Source of the DNA: Escherichia coli
GTDB lineage: Bacteria > Pseudomonadota > Gammaproteobacteria > Enterobacterales > Enterobacteriaceae
Assembly (NCBI RefSeq): GCF_016026235.1
Contig: NZ_CP065613.1
Length of the DNA stretch: 64,000 bases
Reading direction: 5' to 3' (one strand)
Each line of letters opens with the position of its first letter. Position 1 is the first letter of the stretch. The notes beneath the pieces are model-generated. The model did not search any database. It worked only from the letters and a program-made list of their open reading frames with translations, and was not told the DNA's origin. Below, piece by piece: positions 16,524 through 17,178 of the stretch. Both the position numbers and the translations under genes were made by a program.

Positions 16524-16931
16524 TTATCTTTGCGTCTCTTGTTGCAACAAAATCCGCCGTAAATCCCGCCATTCGGCTTCGTCCATGCTGTCGGCTGCCA
16601 GCCATAAATGTTGCCGTTTACCGCCATCAGAACGTAAACGCAGCATCATGCCGCTCTTAATCATCCACGGTGCTTTGACGATGCTCCACTCCTGCCCTTG
16701 CCAACGCAAACGCCCGTCCATCAACAGGCGAATTTCCCCCTGGCGAGCATTAATGCGCCGCTGGCTGCGAACGCAATCAAACACCACCAGCGAAAGTAAC
16801 ACCATCCATAACGGGGTGTAACTGAGCGGCCAGGGCATGAGTAAAATAACAGCGGCAACCAGCCCATGAATCAGCAAGGAAAGCCACTGCGCGCGCCAGG
16901 AGACGCGCAAATCAGATTGCCACAGGACCAC
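16524..16931 (-). CDS. ygfX: Inner-membrane protein YgfX (CptA)
   Basis: 135 aa, two TM helices; start overlaps sdhE by 20 bp. Confidence 0.9.
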
Positions 16932-17178
16932 GTTCCCGGTTCCGTGTCTGGATGAGTCGGACCATCATTTCCAGTTCTGCATCGGTCGGTTTACCGTGAT
17001 TCATTAGCCAGTTGAACAGGTCCGGATCGTCACATTCCAGCAGACGAATAAAGATGCGTTTTTCGTCATCGCTTAAGCTGTCGTACTCATGTTCGAAAAA
17101 CGGCATGATTGAAATATCGAGTTCGCGCATACCACGGCGGCATGCCCAATGAATGCGGGCTTTGTTGTTAATGTCCAT
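16912..17178 (-). CDS. sdhE: FAD assembly factor SdhE (YgfY/CptB)
   Basis: 88-aa product [21 protein letters not shown]... Confidence 0.92.

Follow-up and report, generated by a model that had tools for sequence, protein, structure and literature searches.

The sdhE-ygfX gene pair of Escherichia coli: a core operon with a conserved 20-nt overlap and a probable membrane partner of SdhE

Gene content of the locus

The stretch of DNA analysed here (the window) comprises 64,000 nucleotides of an E. coli genome (assembly GCF_016026235.1, contig NZ_CP065613.1). Two small genes on its minus strand occupy positions 16524-17178, a span that runs from the ygfX stop codon through the sdhE ATG. The features of the pair are as follows.

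16912-17178, minus strand: sdhE (ygfY/cptB) coding sequence, 88 aa, ATG start and TGA stop; from the ORF list and the RefSeq annotation
16524-16931, minus strand: ygfX (cptA) coding sequence, 135 aa, GTG start and TAA stop, encoding an inner-membrane protein; from the ORF list and RefSeq
16912-16931, minus strand: dual-coding overlap of sdhE and ygfX, 20 nt; from the sequence
17122-17136, minus strand: codons of the SdhE RGxxE motif (R15 G16 M17 R18 E19); read from the translation

In profile searches, SdhE matched the Pfam family Sdh5 (PF03937; E 7.6e-26, 90.3 bits against a cutoff of 27) and, over residues 1-88 of 88, the NCBIfam SdhE equivalog NF008130 (197.7 bits, cutoff 120). YgfX matched the Pfam family Cpta_toxin (PF07254; E 6.6e-50, 169.1 bits, cutoff 27.3), with protein residues 2-131 aligned to profile positions 1-132 of 133, and all 41 YgfX relatives in our alignment matched the same family. 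These matches indicate that neither ORF is open by chance. The first-pass annotation had named the two genes as sdhE and ygfX, and the ORF list, Pfam, NCBIfam and RefSeq agree on these identities.

Both genes were also said to be intact, and comparison with K-12 bears this out. YgfX is identical to the K-12 protein in 135 of 135 residues. SdhE is identical in 87 of 88 and retains the RGxxE motif (R15-G16-M17-R18-E19); the sole amino acid difference in the pair is A64T, codon 64 (16987-16989) encoding Thr here and Ala in K-12 and in the PDB entries. SdhE has the same degree of identity (87/88) to the crystallised E. coli protein (PDB 1X6I), and also matches the structures 6C12 (with SdhA) and 6B58 (with FrdA). 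SdhE is a flavinylation factor, in which G16 of the RGxxE motif contacts the FAD-ligand His of FrdA (PMC5773532). Given its identity to the crystallised protein, the SdhE encoded here would be expected to promote covalent flavinylation of SdhA and FrdA.

The 20-bp overlap and the outer coordinates of the pair (16524-17178) proved exact. The RefSeq boundaries and the overlap are the same in NZ_CP065615.1 (strain FDAARGOS_943, locus 100% identical), and those of ORFs b2896/b2897 (ygfX/sdhE) of K-12 MG1655 match the window. On one flank lie recJ-dsbC-xerD-fldB, with fldB convergent with ygfX, and on the other ygfZ (divergent from sdhE), trhA and yqfB. The pair is the known reference sdhE-ygfX operon of E. 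coli, with nothing new in the genes or in their overlap.

Signals for expression

Three candidate signals surround the two genes.

17182-17187, minus strand: Shine-Dalgarno-like AGGAAG, 3 nt upstream of the sdhE ATG, with an anti-SD duplex of -4.3 kcal/mol; from the sequence
17214-17219, minus strand: putative -10 hexamer TACAAT of an sdhE-ygfX promoter, within the conserved block AAAAACACGTTACAaTA
16491-16520, no strand assigned: hairpin separating the stop codons of the convergent genes fldB and ygfX, likely a shared 3' end or terminator; from folding

The CAGGAA core of the sdhE Shine-Dalgarno sequence is conserved across genera. When the ygfZ-sdhE spacers of 16 Enterobacteriaceae were aligned, the block AAAAACACGTTACAaTA was conserved as well; it lies some 36 nt before the sdhE ATG. 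A simple sigma-70 scan gave no match at the pair, and TACAAT was missed for lack of a good -35 element. The ygfZ-sdhE spacer measures 242 nt and contains blocks conserved across genera, one of them ahead of sdhE (AAAAACACGTTACAATA, 17214-17240, minus strand, containing the -10-like TACAAT) and another ahead of ygfZ (TTGCAT...TACCAT, 17335-17385, plus strand). These two blocks are likely to be the divergent promoters of sdhE and ygfZ.

Folding of the hairpin at 16491-16520 yields -21 kcal/mol whichever strand is taken, with z scores of -4.0 and -4.5, and none of 200 shuffled sequences was as stable. A T-rich tail follows it on the plus (fldB) strand only, and a simple terminator scan did not report it. 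The same scan placed two terminators inside ygfX, about as many as chance would give (1.6 expected).

No Rfam family matched in or adjoining the pair, and matches elsewhere were below threshold. One of these, in the ygfZ-trhA spacer (18388-18461), resembled naRNA4 (36 bits against a gathering cutoff of 59.5, E 4e-4); it matched weakly on the opposite strand too, and is probably a REP-type palindromic element.

Distribution and synteny

A single copy of the locus occurred in each of 5425 out of 5426 complete E. coli genomes, in every case with fldB on one side and ygfZ on the other. The copies showed 96.6-100% identity with full-length coverage, and both genes were annotated in every record sampled. 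The one other genome gave no match to the locus, and in a further genome the locus was on a record labelled as a plasmid. The 1-kb locus of the window was at least 99% identical in only 30 of the 5425 genomes, suggesting that the strain belongs to a less common lineage.

To cover the family, 80 loci were sampled from Enterobacteriaceae, one per species, from genera including Escherichia, Citrobacter, Salmonella, Klebsiella, Enterobacter, Kosakonia, Kluyvera, Buttiauxella and Cedecea. In all 80, sdhE was directly upstream of ygfX, the GTG start was at the homologous position and the overlap was exactly 20 nt. The flanking pair of fldB and ygfZ accompanied these loci, with ygfZ lying beyond the end of two short ones. 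Of the two search patterns, the one that can account for these loci falls within ygfX, away from the overlap; the other begins with M (ATG) and would not be expected to match where the start is GTG. Ascertainment does not, therefore, explain the uniformity.

Five YgfX relatives from distant lineages (7 loci, 27-39% identity) were also looked up, and all five retained the order ygfZ-sdhE-ygfX. Their junctions varied: a 20-nt overlap with GTG, a 26-nt overlap with GTG (two lineages), a 14-nt overlap with ATG, and a 30-nt gap with ATG. The gap was found in the Logan metagenome contigs L088 and L089 (2689-3402), which encode a YgfX relative of 31% identity in the same ygfZ-sdhE-ygfX order and which, instead of the overlap, have a strong GAGGG Shine-Dalgarno sequence ahead of an ATG start. 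Such a gap in a distant relative indicates that the overlapped arrangement is lineage-specific. As far as the sequences compared indicate, the two genes stay adjacent throughout the family, and in Enterobacteriaceae this adjacency takes the form of the 20-nt overlap.

The overlap and the ygfX start codon

On the minus strand, the junction reads ...CGG GAA CGT GGT CCT GTG GCA ATC TGA in the sdhE frame. The GTG of ygfX (16931-16929) begins one base into the CGT codon, inside the end of sdhE and 17 nt upstream of its TGA (16914-16912), which places ygfX in the +1 frame. The overlap thus codes in one frame for SdhE, from the last base of codon R83 through residues 84-88 to the stop, and in the +1 frame for YgfX residues 1-7.

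Column entropy was calculated over the 80 Enterobacteriaceae sequences. Eighteen of the 20 overlap columns were invariant, and the mean entropy at third codon positions of sdhE was 0.09 bit in the overlap, compared with 1.07 in the rest of the gene. Third positions of SdhE codons in the overlap are second positions of YgfX codons, and third positions of YgfX codons are first positions of SdhE codons. Both protein ends encoded there are conserved (G-P-V-A-I-stop for the SdhE tail and M-V-L-W-Q-S-D for the start of YgfX). The overlap is frozen in the Enterobacteriaceae, since each of its bases is constrained both by the SdhE tail and by the N-terminal strand of YgfX. Among 41 diverse family members, the YgfX N-terminus was conserved at the protein level, with W4 and S11 nearly invariant.

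An alternative start for ygfX, the TTG at codon 8 (16910-16908, one base past the sdhE stop), was considered and rejected. Codon 8 is CTG, TTA or CTC in most other species, while the GTG is invariant; in addition, residues 1-7 are conserved family-wide and were modelled as a confident strand. The GTG start is well supported, since the N-terminal residues are conserved, the Pfam profile is covered from position 1 and the TTG is not kept.

Predicted structure of YgfX

The structure of YgfX was modelled with AlphaFold2 from the 41-sequence alignment. The mean pLDDT was 92.9, with no segment below 70. The model consists of a strand (residues 2-8), two helices (12-31 and 36-62), six strands between residues 65 and 112, and a helix (118-134). 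The segments beyond the N-terminal strand correspond to the following positions.

16839-16898, minus strand: predicted transmembrane helix 1 of YgfX, residues 12-31 (AlphaFold2)
16746-16826, minus strand: predicted transmembrane helix 2 of YgfX, residues 36-62 (AlphaFold2)
16530-16739, minus strand: predicted cytoplasmic beta-sandwich and C-terminal helix of YgfX, residues 65-134, with a PH-like fold

A basic stretch follows helix 2 and, by the positive-inside rule, the C-terminal domain would lie in the cytoplasm. The strand of residues 2-8, which is encoded in the overlap, probably joins the cytoplasmic sheet.

Bacterial PH-domain membrane proteins offer a comparison for YgfX. At the sequence level YgfX matched no Pfam PH or bPH family, no sequence link was found from the YgfX family to any solved structure, and a Foldseek search of the model against the PDB gave nothing significant. 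Native YgfX has been found in E. coli membrane pull-downs (PMC11997395).

Translational coupling or compaction

The sdhE and ygfX genes have been reported to be co-transcribed in Serratia (PMC5042078) and in Shewanella (PMC8621075).

The first-pass annotation called sdhE and ygfX translationally coupled, and overlaps of the kind seen here commonly give such coupling. Pairing of the anti-SD with the 20-nt segment ahead of the ygfX GTG had an energy of -4.3 kcal/mol, which is average for genes in the window, and the SD-like GGGA ends about 2 nt from the GTG. The 20-nt overlap, the GTG start and the GGGA at 2 nt make translational coupling of the two genes plausible. An RNA structure sequestering the ygfX start was also considered as support for coupling, and was dropped, as the local fold of a 121-nt region at the junction was no better than that of shuffled sequences (z -0.46).

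Alternatively, the overlap could reflect genome compaction, with ygfX translated independently from its own ribosome binding site inside sdhE and without functional coupling. The anti-SD pairing upstream of the GTG, equal to that of the median gene of the window, is consistent with this, as are the conserved CGGAA and GGGAA motifs upstream of it. However, these motifs are also constrained by the SdhE codons, so that their conservation is no proof of an SD role, and a distance of about 2 nt between the best SD-like pairing and the GTG is poor spacing. Moreover, the ygfX start was GTG and never ATG in the 80 species, and the general tendency of such overlaps to give coupling also argues against independent translation. 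The distant relative whose two genes lie 30 nt apart, with a strong GAGGG sequence before an ATG start, shows that coupling is not obligatory for the family. Taken together, independent translation of ygfX in E. coli appears rather unlikely.

The toxin-antitoxin question

The first-pass annotation also stated that the pair has been described as CptB/CptA, a toxin-antitoxin (TA)-like system. That it has been described in this way is correct, the source being Masuda et al. 2012 as represented in citing papers, whereas its nature as a TA system is contested and fits the core, syntenic distribution poorly. According to these citing papers, overexpression of E. coli YgfX was reported to block FtsZ/MreB polymerisation and YgfY to relieve the block (PMC8621075, PMC3985639). 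The name of the Pfam family, Cpta_toxin, follows the label of Masuda et al. 2012.

If the pair were a genuine type IV TA module, the CptA toxin would inhibit FtsZ/MreB polymerisation and SdhE (CptB) would counteract it under physiological conditions. Several observations agree with this. Beyond the E. coli report of Masuda et al. 2012, as cited, Pfam describes PF07254 as the 'membrane-bound toxin component of toxin-antitoxin system', and a homologous CptBA-like pair of A. baumannii showed toxicity and rescue when expressed in E. coli (PMC8132199). The bicistronic arrangement is also TA-like, with the antitoxin gene (sdhE) upstream, the toxin gene (ygfX) downstream and a short overlap of 20 nt.

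The distribution of the locus points the other way. A patchy, mobile or multicopy distribution is typical, though not strictly defining, of TA systems; sdhE-ygfX is a core, single-copy locus that keeps its place next to ygfZ. It occurs in 5425 of 5426 E. coli genomes and in each of the 80 Enterobacteriaceae species sampled, and the gene order extends to the distant relatives. The supposed antitoxin is a housekeeping assembly factor, whose homologues in proteobacteria and eukaryotes do the same job (PMC5042078), and SdhE therefore has a role independent of YgfX. An E. coli delta-ygfY mutant is viable; its defect is SDH-specific, in that it lacks SDH activity and no longer grows on succinate (PMC5293155). 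In addition, neither SdhE nor YgfX matched any PADLOC defence model. A survey of 950 E. coli genomes likewise names CptA_toxin as one of four toxin groups present in at least 80% of the isolates in each sequence type covered (PMC10790755).

Studies in other genera also count against a TA module. In Serratia, the Fineran group is reported to have found no TA phenotype but a direct interaction between YgfX and SdhE (PMC3985639); this contradicts the definition of type IV, by which the antitoxin acts on the target and does not bind the toxin. The Shewanella pair failed all TA criteria, also when expressed in E. coli (PMC8621075). Unlike in Serratia, no interaction between the two proteins was seen in Shewanella (PMC8621075). 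On this evidence we regard a genuine type IV module as distinctly improbable.

It is extremely improbable that ribosomes undergo a programmed +1 frameshift in the overlap and so make an SdhE-YgfX fusion protein. ORFs of 166-217 aa with both Sdh5 and Cpta_toxin domains do occur in metagenome and Logan assemblies, and ahead of the GTG the ygfX frame contains 11 further codons without a stop. The fusion ORFs, however, are singletons with heterogeneous junctions (RERG|LWQ, GPV|QSD, GPVAI|DLR) and in some cases larger deletions, as sporadic 1-nt indels or errors of assembly would produce. The sdhE stop (AUC UGA U) carries no known slippery or shift-prone motif, and two separate genes are annotated in all complete genomes sampled. 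The rare fusion proteins observed were P0002, P0003, P0005, P0008, P0009, P0010, P0013 and P0022. Their junctions fall in or near the overlap, corresponding to positions 16912-16964 of the window, a stretch of about 53 nt in which both frames are open.

Proposed role of the pair

The reading that we consider probable is that this known chromosomal sdhE-ygfX operon encodes in YgfX a membrane partner of SdhE, and not a dedicated toxin, and that the two genes are likely to be coupled. Both genes would be carried on one mRNA, with a promoter likely to be in the ygfZ-sdhE spacer and a transcript end probably at the hairpin shared with fldB. SdhE would bind the flavoprotein subunits SdhA and FrdA via its RGxxE surface, leading to covalent flavinylation of complex II. 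Ribosomes finishing sdhE would most likely re-initiate, or aid initiation, at the GTG, so that YgfX output would be tied to SdhE. YgfX itself is a small inner-membrane protein, modelled as a beta-strand at the N-terminus, a membrane hairpin of two helices and a PH-like domain in the cytoplasm; most likely it serves SdhE as a partner at the membrane and is not a dedicated toxin. Defects of growth and shape on YgfX overproduction would be explained most simply as an effect of overexpression. Against this reading stand the cited E. coli report of YgfX acting on FtsZ/MreB with relief by YgfY, the toxicity and rescue seen with the A. baumannii pair, and the average anti-SD energy ahead of ygfX; in Serratia, moreover, deletion of ygfX left swimming unimpaired (PMC5042078).

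A more specific proposal, put forward tentatively, is that YgfX is a membrane-anchored, PH-like receptor for SdhE. The strand encoded in the overlap might then complete the PH-like domain, the overlap might fix the ratio of YgfX to SdhE, and toxicity might be a side effect of overexpression. If so, flavinylation of SdhA and FrdA could take place at the membrane on which complex II is assembled, or be gated by it.

The discovery value of the locus is low, as the genes, the overlap and both proposed roles are already in the annotation and the literature. The present analysis makes three modest additions, namely the invariance of the GTG and the 20-nt overlap in 80 species, its explanation by dual coding, and the PH-like prediction for YgfX. 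The first of these offers a clean natural test case for translational coupling and dual-coding constraint, and the predicted architecture provides a concrete starting point for the role of YgfX with SdhE. The Pfam name Cpta_toxin and the TA catalogues perpetuate a contested label for a locus that, in genomic terms, resembles a housekeeping operon tied to complex II maturation.

Comparison with known systems

CbtA/CbeA (YeeV/YeeU), the defining type IV TA system of E. coli, shares with sdhE-ygfX the form of a small two-gene unit and a reported toxin target in FtsZ/MreB. It differs in its location, since CbtA/CbeA is described in PMC8621075 as residing in cryptic prophages with paralogous copies, whereas sdhE-ygfX is single-copy, core and syntenic across the family. 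Unlike CbtA/CbeA, moreover, YgfX is a membrane protein for which direct binding to SdhE has been reported (PMC3985639).

The resemblance of YgfX to PH-like domains, such as the eukaryotic PH and Ran-binding domains, is in predicted fold only. SdhE, on the other hand, agrees with the SdhE/Sdh5/SDHAF2 family (PF03937) in its full-length equivalog match, its RGxxE motif and its 87/88 identity, and nothing of note differs.

The closest comparison is with the K-12 operon b2897-b2896, which has the same gene lengths (267 and 408 nt), 20-nt overlap, GTG start and neighbours, and the same YgfX protein. Over the 936 nt of the two genes and their flanking spacers, the window differs from K-12 at 14 single bases, with one amino acid change (SdhE A64T).
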